DNA from: Escherichia coli
GTDB taxonomy: Bacteria > Pseudomonadota > Gammaproteobacteria > Enterobacterales > Enterobacteriaceae
Assembly: GCF_029227855.1 (NCBI RefSeq)
Contig: NZ_CP074356.1
Length of the DNA stretch: 64,000 bases
Strand: one strand, 5' to 3'
The translations under genes and the position numbers were made by a program. Numbering within the stretch: the stretch's first letter is position 1; every line of letters begins with the position of its first letter. Of the stretch, positions 10,166 through 61,313 are shown one piece after another. The notes beneath the pieces were generated by a model. That model searched no databases, was not told the origin of the DNA, and saw nothing but the letters and a program-made list of their open reading frames with translations.

Positions 10166-10223
10166 AAAAACGGCGGCAGAGCAGTCACGGAGTAAAACTG
10201 ATACCGCTAAACGTCACCAGAAA
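10166..10223 (-). ncRNA. dicF: DicF antisense sRNA (ftsZ inhibitor)
   Basis: The reverse strand reads TTTCTGGTGACGTTTAGCGGTATCAGTTTTACTCCGTGACTGCTCTGCCGCCGTTTTT, near-identical to recalled DicF including its terminator. Located upstream of dicB. Confidence 0.85.
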
Positions 10224-14339: not shown

Positions 14340-14585
14340 GTGGCTATGATCCGAATTATGATTAGAATATTTTCTTTGACATTCGTTGCTTGCGCTGGCT
14401 TTGCTGCATATCACTTCAATAGTGTGCCATTGATGTTCACTTCTGGTAGCTTTCTTGTAACATTTTTAGGTACATTTATTGTTAATAAAAAAAGTTCAGG
14501 GCATACAATAATTCAAAAAAGCGGTAGCCATTCAAAAAATAATCATACGGTCGTTTTTGGAAATAATGAAAACAAGCGAGGCTGA
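14340..14585 (+). CDS. 81-aa two-TM peptide with a polar tail (candidate membrane effector module of the island operon)
   Basis: GTG start. TM1 is IRIFSLTFVACAGFAAYHF and TM2 is LMFTSGSFLVTFLGTFIV, followed by KKSSGHTIIQKSGSHSKNNHTVVFGNNENKRG. AT-rich codon usage. Confidence 0.55.
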   Translation: MAMIRIMIRIFSLTFVACAGFAAYHFNSVPLMFTSGSFLVTFLGTFIVNKKSSGHTIIQKSGSHSKNNHTVVFGNNENKRG

Positions 14586-14587
14586 TC

Positions 14588-15184
14588 ATGGTTGGTGTTA
14601 CTCAAAGGTCAGGGAATTACTCACGTAATGTGCAGGTGGTTGTCGATTCTAACTCTGTTGATATTATAAAGTCTCCATCGATTTTTATGGATCTTGTTGG
14701 TATTTTAGTTGATTCGAATGTTATTGATCCTCGTACAAACAATGACTACGAGCCATATGATATTGAGAATAAAATAGACTTCAATGATGTTATAAAACAT
14801 AGAGAACGTATTGAAGGGTTCTATCTATATTCTTCGATGATAGATAAAGCGTATGAAACATTAAATGAAAGTATGCCTACTGCTAAGGAAACGGCACTGA
14901 AAAGCATCAATTCACGATATCTTGATTGTCAAGGAGATTTATTGCTTAAACATAGAGAAGCGTATAAGAGCTGCAAGGATGCTCAGGAACGGAATAATTT
15001 AAAGATTCAATTGGTAAGAGAGTTTGCAGATTGGATAATAGACAGTGTAATAGAGCACATCATTAAGAAATGCTTAAATTCTCTTATGGCAATGAATTAC
15101 ACAAGCGAAGAAATCGAATGCCATGCTTCTTTTATCGTTTATCATGCATTCGTAGAGTGTAAGATTCTGGAAAAACCAATATGA
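14588..15184 (+). CDS. 198-aa predicted all-helical protein (candidate effector-adaptor component)
   Basis: ATG lies 2 nt after the upstream stop; SD GCGAGG. The N-terminus repeats the Q-[KR]-SG..S-[KR]-N..VV motif of the upstream tail. No enzymatic motif recognised. Confidence 0.6.
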   Translation: MVGVTQRSGNYSRNVQVVVDSNSVDIIKSPSIFMDLVGILVDSNVIDPRTNNDYEPYDIENKIDFNDVIKHRERIEGFYLYSSMIDKAYETLNESMPTAKETALKSINSRYLDCQGDLLLKHREAYKSCKDAQERNNLKIQLVREFADWIIDSVIEHIIKKCLNSLMAMNYTSEEIECHASFIVYHAFVECKILEKPI

Positions 15185-15417
15185 TTATCTCTGATGTAAC
15201 AAAACCAAGCCAAACCTTGTATTACCTGGGAGCTCGGTTATTAGAATGCATGAGTTCAAATGCTTATTCGTATGTTGATATTATAGACTTGTATAATGAA
15301 TTCAAATCTAAAAATAACAACTCTTCATTCACGCAATATATTTACACTTTAAATTGGCTATATTTATTAGGCCTGGTTGATGCTAACGAAAATGGAGATT
15401 TGATATTATGTTTTTGA
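15181..15417 (+). CDS. 78-aa small protein, winged-helix-like (candidate middle component)
   Basis: ATGA overlap with the upstream stop. The pattern ..YIYTLNWLYLLGLVDANENGDLILCF resembles a wHTH recognition helix plus wing. Confidence 0.55.
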   Translation: MIISDVTKPSQTLYYLGARLLECMSSNAYSYVDIIDLYNEFKSKNNNSSFTQYIYTLNWLYLLGLVDANENGDLILCF

Positions 15418-17132
15418 AACGGCTAATAGTCAGTTCTTTCAGGCTTGGAGTGATTCGTGATATCGAATTTCACATTGGCGTTAATTTGATTATTGACCGA
15501 AACACCTCCAGCAAAGAGCAAACTGGAAATGGTGTGGGAAAAACTACTGTATTAAGAGCTTTAGATTTTTGTTTTGGAGCAGAACAACTGAATTTTTATA
15601 CCGATCCTGAATTCAAGAAAGAAAATTCGGTTATAAAAAATTATTTGATAGAGAACGAGATTGAGTTTTGTTTAATTCTCACAAAAGATTTGAATAATAA
15701 AACTGCACCAGTAATAAAAATTAAGCGTAAAATTACATCTGAGACTAATAAAACGAAGGTTATAGCCTCAATAAATGAAGAGTCCTATACGAAGGCTAAA
15801 GATTTCAACGAGGCTTTAAAAAGAACATTATATCTTGATTCCGCGATAAAACCGACCATACGAGAGATTATGGGACGTGTTATTCGAAATACGCATGACA
15901 AGATGTCGAACGCATTAAAAACGATAAAAATGGGTTCTAATACACAATATGAAACGTTAAATCTGTTTATGTTTGGGTTCGGTAACTCACAGATTCTGGA
16001 TGAAAAACAGTCAGTGACTAAAGCCTATAAACTGGCGAAATCCGATTATGAAGTAATTACTCGCCATCGCTCAAAGAATGCTTTGGAACAAGCTATTGCA
16101 ATTATAAATAGAGATATTATAGCACAAGAAGAGTTAATTTCTAATTTTCAAGTGGCAGACTCTTATAATGATATGCTTGCTGAGTTAAATGAGTTAAAAA
16201 TTAAAATTAGTGAAGTTTCTATCACACTATCATCTTTGGAGTTTAAGCAAAAATTAAACGATAAGGCTATACTAGATCTGGAAAAAAGTCATGAAAATAT
16301 AAATACACTAGATCTACAGAAGTTGTACTTAGAAGCAACTGATCGGTTAGGTAACTTAAACAAAGAGTTTACTGAGCTACTTTCGTTTCATAATAAAATG
16401 CTTGTAAAAAAAGCTGAGTTTATTAGAAAACAAATGCAGCCAGTGCTGCAAGAAATTTCCAAATATAAAGATGAACTAAATAATTTATTGACTCAAGAAT
16501 CAGAGCTTTTAAAGAGTTTGTCTTCGCATGGGACATTGGCAGACCTGCAAATAATGCAAAAAAAATTAAATTCATTATTTGAAGAAAAAGGTGGGCTTGA
16601 AGCTGGACTACTTCAAATCCAAGAGATGGAGAACAACTTTAATATACTGAAAGCAAAGTTTAATGATGTGTCAGATAGATTAAAATCTAAACTTGACGAT
16701 TTTAACAAACGTCTTGCGCTATTCAATTCCTATTTTTCTTTATATACTAAAAAATTATATCAGGATGAATATATTCTTTCCTATAAAGATTCCTCCGGTT
16801 CTTTCGTTTTTACCATTGAACCTTTAGGAACTTTGCTCACATCAGGTAATCAGGGAGAAGGAAAAAAGAAAGCCCAGGTTGCCTCTTTAGATTTTGCCTA
16901 TTTATCTGTCCAGGAGTCTTTAGAAGCCAGAACACCACGTTTTATAGCTCATGATGGAATTGAGGCAATTCATGTAAATCAAATAAATAAGTTATTCGAG
17001 ATAGCTTCGGGGATTAATGGTCAATATATATTGGCTATTCTTAAAGACAAGTTGGAGAATATTGATCAAGACTTCATCAATAATAGTGTTGTGCTTGAGC
17101 TTGGGGAGGACGATAAGTTTTTTAGGCTTTAA
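15408..17132 (+). CDS. 574-aa ABC/SMC-like ATPase with a coiled-coil insert (ABC-3C / LmuB-like)
   Basis: 10-nt overlap with the upstream ORF. Walker A is GNGVGKTT (aa 40-47; nt 15525-15548). A heptad-rich helical region spans aa ~200-450. The C-terminus has SGNQGEGKK, a Walker-B-like PRFIAHDG and a downstream His. Confidence 0.75.
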   Translation: MFLKRLIVSSFRLGVIRDIEFHIGVNLIIDRNTSSKEQTGNGVGKTTVLRALDFCFGAEQLNFYTDPEFKKENSVIKNYLIENEIEFCLILTKDLNNKTAPVIKIKRKITSETNKTKVIASINEESYTKAKDFNEALKRTLYLDSAIKPTIREIMGRVIRNTHDKMSNALKTIKMGSNTQYETLNLFMFGFGNSQILDEKQSVTKAYKLAKSDYEVITRHRSKNALEQAIAIINRDIIAQEELISNFQVADSYNDMLAELNELKIKISEVSITLSSLEFKQKLNDKAILDLEKSHENINTLDLQKLYLEATDRLGNLNKEFTELLSFHNKMLVKKAEFIRKQMQPVLQEISKYKDELNNLLTQESELLKSLSSHGTLADLQIMQKKLNSLFEEKGGLEAGLLQIQEMENNFNILKAKFNDVSDRLKSKLDDFNKRLALFNSYFSLYTKKLYQDEYILSYKDSSGSFVFTIEPLGTLLTSGNQGEGKKKAQVASLDFAYLSVQESLEARTPRFIAHDGIEAIHVNQINKLFEIASGINGQYILAILKDKLENIDQDFINNSVVLELGEDDKFFRL

Positions 17133-17366: not shown

Positions 17367-17577
17367 TTTCATATTGGCGAGATAACGGGAGTTAAGTAGA
17401 ATGCCTGCGGGTGCTTGAGGCTATCTGCCTCGGGCATGAACACCAACGGCAGATAGAGAAAAGCCCCAGTTAACATTACGCGTCCTGCAAGACGCTTAAC
17501 ATTAATCTGAGGCCAATTTCATGCTAGACACATGTAGGTTAGCCTCTTACGTGCCGAAAGGCAAGGAGAAGCAGGCT

Positions 17578-17733
17578 ATGAAGCAGCAAAAGGCGATGTT
17601 AATCGCCCTGATCGTCATCTGTTTAACCGTCATAGTGACGGCACTGGTAACGAGGAAAGACCTCTGCGAGGTACGAATCCGAACCGGCCAGACGGAGGTC
17701 GCTGTCTTCACAGCTTACGAACCTGAGGAGTAA
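17578..17733 (+). CDS. hokD: Hok/Gef family type I toxin
   Basis: 51 aa, MKQQKAMLIALIVICLTVIVTALVTRKDLCEVRIRTGQTEVAVFTAYEPEE. A structured leader (17400-17577) and 3-prime hairpins (GGCGAGGG..CCCTCGCC at about 17750-17771) are typical of hok mRNAs. Confidence 0.9.
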   Translation: MKQQKAMLIALIVICLTVIVTALVTRKDLCEVRIRTGQTEVAVFTAYEPEE

Positions 17734-19614: not shown

Positions 19615-19992
19615 ATGCGTGATATTCAGATGGTTCTTGAGCGTTGGGGGGCATGGGCGGCTAATAATCATGAAGATGTGACCTGGTCGTCCATTGCCGC
19701 TGGTTTTAAGGGATTAATTCCTTCAAAAGTAAGATCTCGTCCGCAATGCTGTGACGATGACGCGATGATCATTTGTGAATGTATGGCTCGCCTGAGAAAA
19801 AACAACAGCGATTTACATGGTTTATTGGTGGACTATTATGTCGGCGGCATGACTTTTATGGCGCTTGCACGTAAGCATGGGCGATCTGATTGTTGGGTTG
19901 GCAGGATGCTCCAGAAAGCTGAGGGCGTAGTGGAGGGCATGCTGATGGTATTGGATCTCCGATTGGAGATGGATGCTGATTGTTCGAAATAA
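19615..19992 (+). CDS. quuD: late antiterminator Q (QuuD / PF06530 type)
   Basis: [34 protein letters not shown]...[10 protein letters not shown]... matches recalled QuuD. Confidence 0.85.
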
Positions 19993-20004
19993 TTAAAGGA
20001 AAAG

Positions 20005-20033
20005 TTGCTGTCTGATTGTCATTAGTCTAACAT
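20005..20033 (+). promoter_or_regulatory. candidate late promoter pR-prime
   Basis: TTGCTG (20005-20010), a 17-nt spacer, then TAACAT (20028-20033). It lies between the Q stop and the downstream terminator, as in lambdoid phages. Confidence 0.35.
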
Positions 20034-20090
20034 TTTAAATGTTGGAATCGCAACGTAGTTATTATCATATAACAGCTTGTTTCCTGATTT

Positions 20091-20119
20091 AGCCAGCCTC
20101 CCCAAAGGCTGGTTTTTTT
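20091..20119 (+). terminator. rho-independent terminator (tR-prime position; also 3-prime of the convergent blc)
   Basis: AGCCAGCCT-loop-AGGCTGG is followed by TTTTTTT. Confidence 0.75.
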
Positions 20120-20147
20120 CTAATAAGTATCATTTCGGGTAGGGATT

Positions 20148-20678
20148 TTATTGTTTAACCCATAATAATTCATTGACATTGAATCCCAACTTTTGAGCGG
20201 TTCGCACATAGTCTGCTTTTACTTTATCTGGAATAGTTGGGGTCCTTGCCAGAATCCATAGGTATTCTCTGTTCGAACCACTAACAAGAGCATACTTATA
20301 CTCATCATCCAGTTTGATTACATTATAGCCACCATAGAAGGGGCCAAAAAACGAAACCTTCAACGCTGCAGTTTTAGTATCTCCAGTAAAGTATGCTTTA
20401 CCTTCGCTCTCGCTCCATTTATTTTTCGTTGGATCGTATCCACGGTTAAGTACACGAATCCCTCCGTCGTTCCGTTTTCCATAAGTAGCGCTGACCTGTT
20501 CCAGACCACGTTCGAACCGGTTCTCGAGGCGAGCTATTTCATACCATTTTCCGAGGTAGCGGTTGGCGTCAAAATTTGTAATCGGCTGCACACCTTTAGG
20601 TGGTGTCGGGGCCTTACATGCTATAAGAGTGAAAGAGAGTGCAATGCCAGTCAACACAGGCCATAACTTCATAATCAA
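20148..20678 (-). CDS. blc: bacterial lipocalin (Blc-like outer-membrane lipoprotein), phage moron
   Basis: Lipobox LIAC. The lipocalin motifs are NFDANRYLGKWYEIARLENRFERG and the C-terminal YLWILARTP. Confidence 0.85.
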   Translation of the reverse strand: MIMKLWPVLTGIALSFTLIACKAPTPPKGVQPITNFDANRYLGKWYEIARLENRFERGLEQVSATYGKRNDGGIRVLNRGYDPTKNKWSESEGKAYFTGDTKTAALKVSFFGPFYGGYNVIKLDDEYKYALVSGSNREYLWILARTPTIPDKVKADYVRTAQKLGFNVNELLWVKQ

Positions 20679-20864
20679 TCCTGTACTTTTGATAGTTGAG
20701 AGTAAGTATGAAAGATAGATGATTACGACCGATCACTTAAAGAACTTTCATACTATATTAGGAATAGTCCATAACAGAAAAATTGTCAGTGATGACGTCA
20801 GAAAGGCAATTTATTCCGTGCACTACACAGTTTATGTGTTAATGAATTAGTCAAGGGGGAGGAT

Positions 20865-21824
20865 ATGATAAAAAAACCTGTGATTGGAATCAGCGGTTGT
20901 TTGGCCGGTTCTGCTGTTCGTTTTGATGGTGGTCACAAAAGAGCTGACTTTTTAATGGACAAATTAGTGGAATGGGTAACATTCAGACCAGTATGTCCGG
21001 AAATGGCTATAGGGCTGCCAGTTCCGCGTCCTGCTCTACGTCTTGTGCGCTCGAAGCAAGGAAATATACGGATGTGTTTCAGCCACGACCAGAATGAGGA
21101 TGTGACAGAGAGAATGACAGAGTTTAGTCGTTCTTATATGCACAAATTAAAGGATGTATCGGGGTTTGTGGTTTGTGCTAAATCTCCCAGCTGTGGCATG
21201 GAGCGCGTGCGTGTCTATGATGAAAATGGTAATCGAGGTCGTAAAGATGGAGTGGGACTATTTACGAGCACTTTGATGGAAAAGTTTTCCTGGCTACCGG
21301 TTGAAGAGGATGGGCGATTACATGATCCAGTGCTTCGTGAGAATTTTGTTGAAAGAGTTTTTGCTTTGCATGAGCTCAATCACCTTTACAAGGAGAAATT
21401 ATCAAGAAGAGAGTTATTAGCTTTTCATAGTCGTTATAAGCTTCAGTTGTTGGCGCATAGTCAGGCAGGCTATAAAGATATGGGACCATTTGTGGCTGCA
21501 ATACACGAGTGGGCGGACCTTGAATCATACTTTGAGGTGTATCGTGATAAGCTGATGGCGATTCTCAGAAAACCTGCATCACGTAAAAATCACACGAATG
21601 TGCTGATGCATATACAGGGGTATTTTAGTAATTACTTAAGTACACGCCAGCGTAAAGAGTTGACCGAGGTTATACTTAACTATCGCTTTGGCACATTGCC
21701 TCTTCTTGCGCCGTTGACTCTGCTGAAGCATTATCTGGGTGAGTATCCTAATGATTACTTGCTTACACAGAATTACTTCGATCCCTATCCGGAAGAACTG
21801 GCTCTAAGACTGATGGTGAATTAA
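20865..21824 (+). CDS. DUF523 (TudS-like Fe-S desulfidase fold) fused to DUF1722 (YbgA-like)
   Basis: The N-terminus IGISGCLAGSAVRFDGGHK plus CPE and SPSCG cysteines resemble DUF523. The C-terminal half ..FHSRYKLQLLAHSQAGYKDMG..HTNVLMHIQGYF.. resembles YbgA/DUF1722. Confidence 0.65.
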   Translation: MIKKPVIGISGCLAGSAVRFDGGHKRADFLMDKLVEWVTFRPVCPEMAIGLPVPRPALRLVRSKQGNIRMCFSHDQNEDVTERMTEFSRSYMHKLKDVSGFVVCAKSPSCGMERVRVYDENGNRGRKDGVGLFTSTLMEKFSWLPVEEDGRLHDPVLRENFVERVFALHELNHLYKEKLSRRELLAFHSRYKLQLLAHSQAGYKDMGPFVAAIHEWADLESYFEVYRDKLMAILRKPASRKNHTNVLMHIQGYFSNYLSTRQRKELTEVILNYRFGTLPLLAPLTLLKHYLGEYPNDYLLTQNYFDPYPEELALRLMVN

Positions 21825-22221
21825 CTGTATGCGATATCATCTGAAAGTGATGAGTTCCTGTATGCAGGATATTTACAATCGTAAAAACTACACTATGATA
21901 CCCATAGTGTCAGTTTGTATAAAAATCCTGTTCACGCTGAAGAAAACATTGAGATGCAATTTAATGTTGGTAAACATACCAGCCCCAAAAGATTTTATTC
22001 AATCTGTTTTTATATGAAGATATTTCAAGTGAATATTAAGAGTATATAATATTATTATTGCACGCAGCTATTATAATATAACAGATTAGTTTAATGATTT
22101 GTTTTTTGTGAGTTAAACACATGGTTTTATAGTTGTGATGCAATGAGATTTTCCTTATTGTTGAACTGGCGAATATTGATTTTCCACCTATACTTACCTG
22201 GTGTAACCCCAGTGATATCAG

Positions 22222-22944
22222 GTGGATAATATGCCATACATATGTTCTGTCATTTTGGTGTTGAACTCGTTTGGTGTCCGAATTGGTAAAGAAGATATTT
22301 TGTTTAAAAAAGGAAGTGCTGTCCTCATCGAATACAATTTAAAAGATCTTTTTTCGTCAAATACAGATCATCTAATGATCGTAGATGTTGAGGAGAAAAC
22401 AGTTAATGATTTCTTTAAAAACTACACACTCTCACCTTTTTCTGTAAGAAGGTTTTATCCGGCATACTTGATAGTAGAATGTGAAGGTTTTTCTTTGTTA
22501 AAGAACTTGGTTGCATGCTTGAATTGTGATAGCAAAACCGTGGATGTGGTTAGAAATCAAATATCACTTGCATGTCTTGCTGTCTTATCTTCAGAGAAAA
22601 TAGTGCAAAGTTTTTTGTTCGGAAGTCTTAATAGCTTAGGTTGTAAAGTTAAGGCTATTATTCACTCGGATATCTCAGCGTCATGGAGACTTTGTGATAT
22701 ATCTTCAAGATTATATATGAGCGAGAGTTTGTTAAAAAGAAAATTAAAAGACGAAGGGGTATCGTTTAGTAGATTAATTCTTGAAGAACGAATGATGATG
22801 GCGCAAAGATTATTAATTTACAGTAACCATACTGTCGGCAAGGTGGCGGGAATATGCGGGTATGACAATGCATCATATTTTGTAAGTGTTTTTAGAAGAT
22901 ATTTTGGTGTGCCTCCGCACCAATATTTATCAAGATTTTCTTAG
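22222..22944 (+). CDS. AraC/XylS family transcriptional regulator (GadX/AppY/PatE-like prophage regulator)
   Basis: The C-terminal double HTH is ..LCDISSRLYMSESLLKRKLKDEGVSFSRLILEERMMMAQRLL..GYDNASYFVSVFRRYFGVPPHQY. The start is GTG 22222 or ATG 22231. Confidence 0.8.
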   Translation: MDNMPYICSVILVLNSFGVRIGKEDILFKKGSAVLIEYNLKDLFSSNTDHLMIVDVEEKTVNDFFKNYTLSPFSVRRFYPAYLIVECEGFSLLKNLVACLNCDSKTVDVVRNQISLACLAVLSSEKIVQSFLFGSLNSLGCKVKAIIHSDISASWRLCDISSRLYMSESLLKRKLKDEGVSFSRLILEERMMMAQRLLIYSNHTVGKVAGICGYDNASYFVSVFRRYFGVPPHQYLSRFS

Positions 22945-23013
22945 AAGATATGATGTGATGGCATTTTATAAAGTTGTTTTTTTGAAGTGTAAGATTATAC
23001 GATATTTTTAGCT

Positions 23014-23046
23014 ACGCCAGAATAATTGCTGGCGTTTTTCTTTTTG
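23014..23046 (+). terminator. rho-independent terminator between the AraC gene and the holin
   Basis: ACGCCAG-aataattg-CTGGCGT is followed by TTTTCTTTTT. Confidence 0.7.
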
Positions 23047-23135: not shown

Positions 23136-23351
23136 ATGAAATCCATGGATAAGTTAACAACGGGCATCGCCTACGGCACCTCTGCAGGCAGTGCTGGCTA
23201 CTGGTTTTTACAGTTGCTCGATAAAGTCACGCCCTCACAGTGGGCGGCAATAGGTGTATTGGGTAGTCTGGTATTTGGCATGCTGACGTATCTGACTAAC
23301 CTTTATTTCAAGATTAAAGAAGACAGGCGTAAGGCTGAGAGAGGAGAGTAA
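23136..23351 (+). CDS. essQ: class II holin, S21 (pinholin) type with a dual-start motif
   Basis: 71 aa, [71 protein letters not shown]. The Met1-Lys-Ser-Met4 dual start matches phage 21 S. SD GGAGGTGAGG. Confidence 0.9.
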
Positions 23352-45569: not shown

Positions 45570-46277
45570 TGCACAGAAAACCCCCAGCTAGGCTGGGGGT
45601 TCCGGAAAGCTTTCAGCTTTGAGCCAGTTATTAAAACCCCTTTTGATTTGTTAAAACACTTTGCGGTCTGGCAACTGCAAGTGTCAAACAAGAAATCAAA
45701 AGGGGGTCCCAATGGGGAACGAAAAGAGCTTAGCGCACACCCGATGGAACTGTAAATATCACATAGTTTTTGCGCCAAAATACCGAAGACAGGTGTTCTA
45801 CAGAGAGAAGCGTAGAGCAATAGGCAGTATTTTGAGAAAGCTGTGTGAGTGGAAAAGCGTACGGATTCTGGAAGCTGAATGCTGTGCAGATCATATCCAT
45901 ATGCTTGTGGAGATCCCGCCCAAAATGAGCGTATCCGGGTTTATGGGATATCTGAAAGGGAAAAGCAGTCTGATGCTTTACGAGCAGTTTGGTGATTTGA
46001 AATTCAAATACAGGAACAGGGAGTTCTGGTGCAGAGGGTACTACGTCGATACAGTGGGTAAGAACACGGCGAAGATACAGGATTACATAAAGCACCAGCT
46101 TGAAGAGGATAAAATGGGAGAGCAGTTATCGATTCCCTATCCGGGCAGCCCGTTTACGGGCCGTAAGTAACGAAGTTGGATGCAAATGTCAGATCGTGTG
46201 CGCCTGTTAGGGCGCGGCTGGTAAGAGAGCCTTATAGGCGCATTTGAAAAACCTCCGGCTATGCCGGAGGATATTTA
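45570..46277 (+). mobile_element. IS200 (IS200/IS605 family) insertion; ends approximate
   Basis: The left-end hairpin is AACCCCCAGC-tag-GCTGGGGGTT (45579-45601). An RBS-occluding inverted repeat CCCCTTTTGATTT / AAATCAAAAGGGG is present, with tnpA inside. A right-side hairpin CCTCCGGC-tat-GCCGGAGG lies at 46252-46270. The ~0.7 kb size fits IS200. Confidence 0.7.
45712..46170 (+). CDS. tnpA: IS200 Y1 (HUH) transposase TnpA
   Basis: 152 aa, MGNEKSLAHTRWNCKYHIVFAPKYRRQVFY...CADHIHMLVEIPPKMSVSGFMGYLKGKSS... with the HUH motif and catalytic Tyr region. Confidence 0.95.
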   Translation: MGNEKSLAHTRWNCKYHIVFAPKYRRQVFYREKRRAIGSILRKLCEWKSVRILEAECCADHIHMLVEIPPKMSVSGFMGYLKGKSSLMLYEQFGDLKFKYRNREFWCRGYYVDTVGKNTAKIQDYIKHQLEEDKMGEQLSIPYPGSPFTGRK

Positions 46278-60999: not shown

Positions 61000-61044
61000 G
61001 CTCCGTTTAACATTCATTGAGAAAACTGATGCTACTGTGTCAAC

Positions 61045-61143
61045 GATCCGTTATCAGTGCAGGAAAATGCCTGTTAGCGTAAAAGCAAAACACAAATCTA
61101 TCCATGCAAGCATTCACCGCCGGTTTACTGGCGGTTTTTTTTT
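61045..61143 (+). ncRNA. mgrR: MgrR sRNA (PhoP-regulated)
   Basis: GATCCGTTATCAGTGCAGGAAAATGCCTGTTAGCG...CACCGCCGGTTTACTGGCGGTTTTTTTTT matches recalled MgrR, including its terminator. Divergent from mgtS. Confidence 0.75.
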
Positions 61144-61217
61144 GCCGTCATAAAAATCAGGCCCCTTGTACACAACTGTAACAAGGGGCCGGTTAGGTGA
61201 GGGATTATCTCCGTTCA

Positions 61218-61313
61218 TTAGTCATCCCATTTGTGGCTGAAATACGCGGCCAGAAAACCAGAAAATAAAATTATTCCCAGTACGGCCATAAAAACATTCA
61301 TATTACCCAGCAT
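61218..61313 (-). CDS. mgtS: small membrane protein MgtS (YneM)
   Basis: 31 aa, MLGNMNVFMAVLGIILFSGFLAAYFSHKWDD, read from the reverse strand. SD GGAGG upstream. Confidence 0.9.
   Translation of the reverse strand: MLGNMNVFMAVLGIILFSGFLAAYFSHKWDD

Follow-up and report, generated by a model that had tools for sequence, protein, structure and literature searches.

A conserved prophage cassette of blc, araC, and a predicted tRNA 4-thiouridine desulfidase gene between Q and the lysis genes in Escherichia coli

Introduction

Stx phages carry stx in the slot between the antiterminator gene Q and the lysis genes. We examined this slot in a lambdoid prophage within a 64,000-nucleotide stretch of Escherichia coli DNA (contig NZ_CP074356.1; this whole stretch is called the window), where a blc-like lipocalin gene, a gene for a 319-aa fusion of the domains DUF523 and DUF1722 (rudS), and an AraC-family regulator gene (araC) lie between Q and the holin gene. 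The closest described relatives of the fusion protein form the RudS family of TudS-DUF1722 fusions, which strip 4-thiouridine (s4U) from tRNA by means of a [4Fe-4S] cluster (Jamontas et al., NAR 2024, PMC11417400). In that work, RudS overexpression in E. coli decreased tRNA s4U, overexpression of RudS_KT shortened the growth delay induced by ultraviolet A (UVA), Cys mutants of the tested homologues were inactive, and the DUF1722 domain was tied to tRNA binding; no RudS allowed growth on 2-thiouracil, the activity being s4U specific (PMC11417400). One of the six enzymes assayed, RudS_vir, comes from Escherichia phage 1H12, where it is gp66 (YP_009909557); it has Cys12, Cys44, and Cys110 and lowered tRNA s4U in vivo in E. 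coli (PMC11417400). Genes for MerR/LitR-type regulators or photolyases are typically found near rudS, the MerR/MlrA-like regulator beside chromosomal rudS has been discussed as light responsive, and E. coli was stated to lack RudS (PMC11417400). Among prophage-borne AraC-like regulators of enterohemorrhagic E. coli (EHEC) O157:H7, PatE and PsrB activate gadE and hdeAB, while PsrA and PsrB repress type III secretion via GadE (2024 review, PMC10877973); PsrA has the locus tag ECs_1087 and belongs to Sakai prophage Sp4 (PMC13502914).

Compared with these systems, we read the locus in the window as a conserved two-module moron cassette, with blc/rudS as one module and a PatE/PsrA-group araC as the other, placed in the pR′/tR′-to-lysis slot of lambdoid prophages with a Q of the QuuD/phage-82 type and having the functions proposed below. 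We give this reading a probability of roughly 0.7.

A cargo block in the Q-to-lysis slot

The original prediction, made from the window alone, had described an AT-rich insert of three genes in the slot where Stx phages carry their toxin genes. The three-gene block is real and lies at essentially the positions given there (Table 1), all of the features described being present in the open reading frame (ORF) listing, the annotation of the Prokaryotic Genome Annotation Pipeline (PGAP), and Pfam and NCBIfam. GC content is 38.7% across 20148-22944 versus 47.8% for the whole window, so the insert is indeed AT rich; by piece, GC content is 43% in blc and rudS, 34% in araC, and 31% in the region upstream of araC (21825-22230). 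Genes were called from the ORF listing and from a genome of 100% identity annotated by PGAP (locus L001, in which positions equal those of the window plus 401). Over the 3.8 kb tested, the window matches several complete E. coli genomes at 100%, e.g., that of strain 2D (NZ_CP059003). The host element is a lambdoid prophage of ~45 kb that extends from its integrase at ~5416 to ~50834 and occupies the Qin site, flanked by rspB and a truncated ydfJ.

Relatives of this prophage hold other cargo in the same place. In DLP12 and phage 4A7, which have the same holin as the window, a minus-strand porin gene fills the Q-to-holin slot, and the Q of 4A7 is 83% identical to that of the window. Homology with DLP12 stops at the Q stop codon and restarts ~20 bp ahead of the holin start codon, a picture of classic cargo swapping that bears out the placement of the block in the slot. 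Like the stx of Stx phages and the nmpC/ompD porin of DLP12, the cargo in the window comes after Q, pR′, and tR′ and before the holin, between the same flanking genes; unlike them, it consists of stress and regulatory genes, not of a toxin or porin gene, with one gene antisense and two sense. The minus-strand orientation of blc (20148-20672) makes it antisense to the late transcript, as had been noted.

The RudS fusion protein

The 319-aa protein is predicted to be RudS, a [4Fe-4S] tRNA 4-thiouridine desulfidase. Its N terminus matches the Pfam family PF04463 (2-thiour_desulf, DUF523) at 5.5e-40 over residues 7 to 149, covering the whole profile, and the C terminus of the same polypeptide matches PF08349 (DUF1722) at 9.4e-40 over residues 192 to 309, with an NCBIfam YbgA-type model spanning residues 160 to 315. 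The motif SGCLAGSAVRFDGG is present together with Cys12, Cys44, and Cys110, whose aligned counterparts in the TudS structure 6Z92 are Cys10, Cys43, and Cys104 (E = 1.5e-4). The TudS-type DUF523-DUF1722 fusion of the original prediction is therefore upheld, and none of the three Fe-S ligands is missing on alignment. Placed by offset from the cysteines, residues E46, S107, S109, R55, R19, S239, and R240 correspond to RudS_KT Glu51, Ser111, Ser113, Arg60, Arg24, Ser243, and Arg244, respectively, while RudS_KT Tyr25 and Asn26 are replaced by Phe20 and Asp21.

The protein is 92% identical to RudS_vir in a gapless alignment, both being 319 aa long, and none of the 24 substitutions falls on a named catalytic or tRNA-binding residue. 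Because of this identity to a characterized enzyme and the Pfam and PDB matches, we consider the fold settled. The earlier guess that the protein acts on tRNA s4U agrees with the published RudS results, including those for RudS_vir (PMC11417400), and we infer from this likeness that the window allele would likewise remove s4U. TudS itself shares the N-terminal fold family, with the three cluster cysteines, the glutamate, and the SPSCG motif aligning with the window RudS, but its similarity to RudS is distant, it is without DUF1722, and its substrates are free thiouracils and 4-thio-UMP. Phage 1H12 offers the closest parallel at the level of the locus, with the same cassette position (Q-blc-rudS-araC-holin); it differs in its Jouyvirus backbone, as opposed to the Qin-site prophage of the window, in a neighboring araC allele that is only 76% identical, and in the absence of one copy of a 26-nucleotide (nt) repeat described below. 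Database labels give little hint of this: PGAP calls the rudS product a "YbgA family protein," and the existing PHROG families that take in all three cargo proteins are tagged "unknown function." The annotation of rudS in databases thus lags behind its characterization.

The Blc lipocalin

The minus-strand gene encodes a Blc-like lipoprotein, as had been proposed. The protein scores 312.4 bits against the NCBIfam Blc model NF007786 (cutoff, 267) and matches PDB 3MBT at 5e-68 with 63% identity. Outer membrane lipoproteins are sorted by the absence of Asp at position +2; Blc has a lipoprotein signal peptide with this outer membrane sorting signal, its lipobox LIAC being followed by Lys (read off the sequence as MKLWPVLTGIALSFTLIAC and then K). 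The phage protein resembles the chromosomal Blc of E. coli (PDB 1QWD/3MBT) in lipocalin fold, lipoprotein signal, and length but is only 63% identical to it, so a lysogen has two diverged blc genes. In contrast, it is 79 to 81% identical to the Blc encoded next to rudS in Enterobacter, Leclercia, and Citrobacter sedlakii.

One could ask whether the cell surface is the main site of action of the cassette, through superinfection exclusion or envelope remodeling by Blc, with rudS and araC as accessories. The alternative cargo of the slot is an outer membrane porin, likewise on the opposite strand, Blc has its lipobox and sorting signal, and among the three genes conservation is highest in blc (dN/dS of 0.07; 97 to 99% identity). 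However, PADLOC defense models match none of the Blc, RudS, and AraC proteins, and we know of no exclusion function of Blc. Since blc and rudS are linked in chromosomes as well, they would have a shared physiological role that is not phage specific. We regard a mainly surface-acting cassette as very improbable.

Chromosomal origin and modularity

To place the blc/rudS pair, chromosomal RudS loci were scanned in one genome per species (64 loci). Homologues of RudS at 66 to 76% identity are found in Citrobacter, Kluyvera, Klebsiella, Enterobacter, Leclercia, Pectobacterium, and others, and in ~40 of the 64 species loci a Blc homologue lies upstream of rudS on the opposite strand. The prophage gap between the two genes (192 bp) is close to that of C. 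sedlakii (187 bp). Enterobacter and Leclercia have two genes between blc and rudS, one for a MerR/MlrA-like regulator and one that is transthyretin-like. No AraC homologue accompanied the chromosomal blc-rudS loci of the species scan. Given the divergent pair in chromosomes, the similar gap, and the higher identity of the phage Blc to rudS-linked Blc (79 to 81%) than to E. coli Blc (63%), the phage most likely acquired both genes together and without the MerR regulator. Chromosomal RudS proteins, such as those of E. cloacae and Salmonella (RudS_ST, STM1389/ORF319), share the two-domain architecture and length of the phage protein, and in many species the divergent blc neighbor. They differ in setting: a MerR/MlrA-like gene adjoins rudS in E. 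cloacae, and in a plasmid copy too, whereas the phage cassette has none and lies in a Q-controlled late operon. By ORF listing and PGAP, the prophage cassette has neither a MerR nor a photolyase gene. The blc/rudS intergenic region is alike among phage alleles and unlike the chromosomal versions, with no strong promoter consensus; when the phage region was aligned with its Citrobacter counterpart in search of a common promoter or operator, the two were too diverged to be informative.

The two modules have different histories. Between the window and a second allele (L070), the synonymous divergence (dS) is 0.015 in blc and rudS versus 0.34 in araC and 0.22 in Q. Together with the difference in GC content (43% versus 34%), these distances argue that, within prophages, three pieces recombine independently and make the cassette a mosaic. 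Ratios of nonsynonymous to synonymous divergence (dN/dS) of 0.07 for blc, 0.10 to 0.13 for rudS, and 0.20 to 0.26 for araC point to purifying selection on all three cargo genes.

The AraC-family regulator

The C-terminal double helix-turn-helix (HTH) of the AraC protein matches the DNA-binding domain of GadX (3MKL) at 2.8e-21, besides the Pfam matches in Table 1. It was compared with a set taken from annotated genomes (ECs_1087, ECs_0287, and the K-12 proteins AppY, EnvY, GadW, GadX, and YdeO). We infer that ECs_0287, the AraC-like regulator of Sakai prophage Sp1 at thrW, is PatE (z0321, O island 8 [OI-8]); we take Sakai Sp1 to be OI-8 of EDL933. Identity to this PatE candidate is 48% over the full length and 66% in the DNA-binding domain, followed by PsrA at 40% and 56% and by GadW, AppY, and YdeO at 30 to 34% and 38 to 44%, respectively. 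The N-terminal domain is ~24 to 34% identical to those of the PatE candidate and PsrA. These values place the AraC protein as a diverged member of the PatE/PsrA prophage regulator group. A regulator of a kind that acts on host acid resistance and virulence genes had been expected here, and the relationship to PatE and PsrA agrees with this, the targets following from homology. YdeO orthology was considered and rejected: the YdeO model NF007407 is the best curated match, at 115.5 bits against a cutoff of 348.

PatE, PsrA, and PsrB resemble the window protein in size, architecture, and near-identical first recognition helix regions, and psrA, like araC in the window, lies downstream of Q and ahead of the late region in Sakai Sp4. 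Nevertheless, the low N-terminal identity indicates that PatE and PsrA are not orthologous to the window AraC, and whereas PatE, PsrA, and PsrB belong to EHEC O157:H7, the window araC is found mostly in non-O157 strains. The Sp4 neighbors of psrA differ as well, being a CAAX protease-like gene and tRNAs: in Sp4 (L004, 47238-49668), the CAAX protease-like gene is followed by psrA and then by three tRNA genes, ileZ, argN, and argO. This tRNA cargo has no counterpart in the window, in which no tRNA genes were found. The annotated PsrA coding sequence (195 aa) looks N-terminally truncated relative to a 237-aa ORF. For araC in the window, PGAP picks an ATG start, and a GTG 9 nt upstream is also possible.

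Several IMG/VR loci have araC or its upstream region broken or replaced, by IS1 in L092 and L097 and by other insertions in L105, L106, and L114; several araC alleles of the 85% type are frameshifted, with blc and rudS intact in the same loci.

Distribution in E. coli and phages

Prevalence was determined in 5,426 complete E. coli genomes. The Q-to-holin block is present at a coverage of at least 80% in 954 of them, rudS in 1,110 (20.5%), and araC in 995; rudS is full length in 1,127 of 1,199 matching E. coli records. Where the context of rudS was checked, it was the prophage Q-to-holin block, plus 60 plasmid matches. Since rudS is in ~20% of complete genomes, the statement that E. coli lacks RudS is true for laboratory strains and not for the species. 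In IMG/VR, a close RudS relative is encoded by 127 contigs, and in the 80 of these that were retrieved for comparison of gene order, the order Q-blc-rudS-araC-holin is constant wherever the genes are present. Isolated phages with the same cassette are 1H12 (Q-Blc-gp66-gp67-holin) and IdasGreatGrand; full-length RudS occurs in 12 of 50,697 phage records, from the 1H12 group and IdasGreatGrand. A phage-borne desulfidase had been called unusual, which holds for isolated phages but not for E. coli genomes, a fifth of which carry the gene, nor for the enzyme, which was already characterized. A literature search found no paper treating the cassette as a unit.

Two observations concern rudS outside this prophage setting. 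Plasmid pCFSAN061762 (L150, NZ_CP042902, 77.5 to 81.5 kb) carries a different rudS, at 66% nucleotide identity, in an Enterobacter-type block of a truncated blc, MerR, uraH-like, rudS, and AAA ATPase genes adjoining IS26, and there are ~60 such plasmid places; plasmids give RudS a second, independent way into E. coli. Two short contigs (L057 and L062) of "Candidatus Nanosynbacter sp." bin D148_maxbin.008 carry the E. coli cassette (Q, Blc, RudS, AraC, and holin) at 93 to 99% protein identity and are almost certainly misbinned E. coli prophage DNA.

Late promoter, terminators, and 26-nt repeat

The features of the interval are collected in Table 1. Of the pR′ and tR′ signals in the original prediction, the terminator stands, and the promoter stays a guess between two candidates at consensus level: TGGAGA-18-AATAAT at 19964-19993, with 9 of 12 consensus positions, and TTGCTG-17-TAACAT at 20004-20032, read off the sequence. 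The candidate region is kept in the L070 and 1H12 alleles. The tR′-like terminator, ~100 bp past Q, has a 9-bp stem with five GC pairs and a T7 run (-14.9 kcal/mol, z = -4.7) and is unchanged in three alleles. The expected terminator of araC is also present, as a 7-bp stem with five GC pairs followed by TTTTTCTTTTT (-11.3 kcal/mol, z = -3.2). The hairpin after rudS (-13.1 kcal/mol, z = -4.8) is terminator-like on both strands and is kept in all four aligned alleles. Of the moron traits of an own promoter, an own terminator, and a divergent base composition, the cassette shows the last two, its promoter-like sites being no commoner than expected by chance. In lysogens, the pR′-to-tR′ leader (~20000-20121) would yield a terminated RNA of roughly 75 to 120 nt, for which there is no Rfam match. 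In Stx phages, the same kind of terminated leader transcript gives the StxS small RNA.

Copy 1 of the 26-nt direct repeat reads ACGTAGTTATTATCATATAACAGCTT. The two copies agree at 22 of 26 positions and bracket tR′-blc-rudS, and a pattern derived from the repeat occurs twice in the 64 kb versus zero times expected. The leaders of DLP12 and 4A7 share the core of the repeat, ATATAACAG..GTTT. Alleles of the 97% and 85% types have copy 2, and in the 1H12 type it is deleted. The repeat may be a duplicated Q-utilization (qut-like) or pause-related element, in which case copy 2 upstream of araC could be a second Q-utilization-like element; alternatively, it may be a recombination scar of blc-rudS insertion between the leader and araC. 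A role as a PatE/Psr-type operator is unsupported, since searches around psrA and patE and in the GAD island of K-12 gave no convincing matches.

Table 1. Features from Q to the first lysis gene, in window positions
Feature	Position	Strand	Evidence
Q antiterminator gene (PF06530 type, QuuD/phage-82-like)	19615-19992	+	Pfam Phage_antitermQ 3.4e-50; PGAP "antiterminator Q family protein"
Candidate late promoter pR′ region	19964-20032	+	Two consensus-level sigma-70 candidates (putative)
Direct repeat copy 1, 26 nt, pR′ leader	20053-20078	+	Repeat search
tR′-like intrinsic terminator	20091-20121	+	Hairpin 20091-20114 and T7 run
blc-like outer membrane lipocalin lipoprotein gene, 174 aa	20148-20672	-	Pfam Lipocalin_2 2.7e-43; antisense to late transcript
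Divergent blc/rudS intergenic region, 192 bp, 34% GC	20673-20864		Sequence
rudS, DUF523(TudS)-DUF1722 fusion, 319 aa, predicted tRNA 4-thiouridine desulfidase	20865-21824	+	Pfam
Conserved hairpin directly after rudS (weak terminator or RNA end)	21889-21912	+	Folding
Direct repeat copy 2, 26 nt, 145 bp 5′ of araC	22062-22087	+	Repeat search
araC, AraC-family regulator gene (PatE/PsrA group), 237 aa	22231-22944	+	HTH_18 1.5e-17; HTH_AraC 3.6e-13
Intrinsic terminator 3′ of araC	23014-23046	+	Hairpin 23014-23035 and T run
S21-type holin gene (EssD-like), first lysis gene, right border of slot	23136-23351	+	Pfam Phage_holin_2_1 (P21 holin) 5e-35; PGAP essD

Proposed working of the cassette

We propose that RudS would hold a [4Fe-4S] cluster through Cys12, Cys44, and Cys110 and that Glu46 with Ser107 and Ser109 would exchange sulfur for oxygen in the 4-thiouridine at position 8 of tRNA (s4U8), with DUF1722 holding the tRNA. 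In lysogens or induced cells, a lower s4U8 content would limit UVA-induced s4U8-C13 cross-linking and with it the growth delay and the stringent response. Blc would act as an outer membrane lipocalin lipoprotein, a second, diverged copy of the host gene. The AraC protein, by homology, would activate host acid resistance genes such as gadE and hdeAB; its gene forms a module that has an AT-rich upstream region and a terminator to itself. From their orientation, rudS and araC, sense to the late transcript, would be boosted on induction by Q-modified polymerase. Before it arrived at the lysis genes, this polymerase would have to read past tR′, the 21889 hairpin, and the 23014 terminator. The antisense blc would be expressed in the lysogen and opposed by late transcription. 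The phage would have moved the blc/rudS pair from MerR control to its own.

In chromosomes, blc and rudS are linked to each other and to a MerR gene, which suggests a common stress response for Blc and RudS. We can only speculate further that rudS, the first sense late gene, strips s4U8 after induction so that UVA in sunlight cannot cross-link tRNA, set off the stringent response, and abort late protein synthesis, and that with Blc it makes up a portable photo-stress module of enterobacterial chromosomal origin transferred from MerR to Q control. We think this extension rather unlikely. A literature search on phage effects of s4U or near-UV found nothing specific.

Several points weigh against the two-module cassette with these functions. 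The first is in the published assays: although RudS_vir was well produced, its activity on tRNA seemed to fall short of that of other RudS enzymes, and it had the shortest lag of the tested RudS on free 4-thiouracil in a uracil auxotroph (PMC11417400), so that its preferred substrate is not settled. Both results would suit an enzyme that mainly salvages nucleobases or nucleotides, like stand-alone TudS, by acting on 4-thiouracil or 4-thio-UMP from RNA turnover in infection, as would the intact TudS domain of the window RudS with all of its catalytic residues. However, no RudS sustained growth as TudS did, and every RudS variant tested decreased tRNA s4U (PMC11417400); moreover, DUF1722 is intact in the window RudS, with S239 and R240 (RudS_KT Ser243 and Arg244) conserved. 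Salvage as the main role therefore appears improbable, and we retain tRNA desulfidation as the predicted activity. Second, the GC content of blc and rudS is 43% in the phage versus 50 to 60% in the chromosomal homologues, so no sampled species is the direct donor. Third, since the AraC protein is only 40 to 48% identical to characterized regulators, and ~24 to 34% in its N-terminal domain, its targets may differ from those of PatE and PsrA.

The remaining points concern expression and retention. Promoter-like sites, which match at consensus level only, number 12 versus 10.6 expected from shuffles; because they are no commoner than in shuffled sequence, the pR′ assignment is still a guess. In addition, araC is frameshifted, disrupted by insertion sequences (IS), or deleted in ~12 of 77 IMG/VR loci with blc and rudS intact, although rudS was the query for the IMG/VR set and its intactness there is partly a selection effect; araC is thus dispensable for keeping blc and rudS. 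These observations would be expected if the cassette were silent passenger DNA, silenced by H-NS and kept without effect by linkage to Q and the lysis genes. The 31 to 34% GC around araC is typical of H-NS targets, strong promoters were not detected in the cassette, and no paper on it as a unit was found. On the other hand, dN/dS is 0.07 to 0.26 across diverged alleles, rudS is full length in most matching E. coli records, the block is kept in isolated phages, where space is tight, and related AraC regulators in a similar position have measured phenotypes (PMC10877973). We consider a silent passenger quite improbable and prefer a cassette with functions in its host.

Other features of the window

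Between the replication genes and hokD is an island of 30 to 34% GC at 14346-17132. Its PGAP annotation includes "ABC-three component system" genes and a DUF2326 protein, and a 574-aa protein of the island matches the PADLOC candidate defense family PDC-M68B at 1.3e-41; the island is probably a prophage-borne antiphage system. At Rfam gathering thresholds, applied to the whole window, no RNA family was found within 19993-23046. Matches at this level elsewhere are DicF (10171-10222, minus strand), sok (17409-17583, plus strand) with hokD at ~17578-17733, STnc490 at the start of the tail fiber gene (45579-45702, plus strand), and STnc560 opposite ydeE, beyond the prophage (61011-61224, plus strand).

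Conclusions

The finding is largely known: enzyme family, regulator family, and slot have all been described, and the enzyme of this same cassette was already tested, so the cassette is not a new kind of system. Four aspects appear to be new: how common it is in E. coli, the probable shared chromosomal source of blc and rudS, the modularity and faster evolution of araC, and the presence of the 26-nt repeat. The araC gene represents a widespread, diverged branch of the PatE/Psr regulators outside EHEC. On the speculative photo-stress reading, roughly one in five E. coli strains would gain a capacity for tRNA demodification from a prophage. UVA growth-delay and stringent-response phenotypes may vary between E. 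coli strains owing to the presence of rudS.

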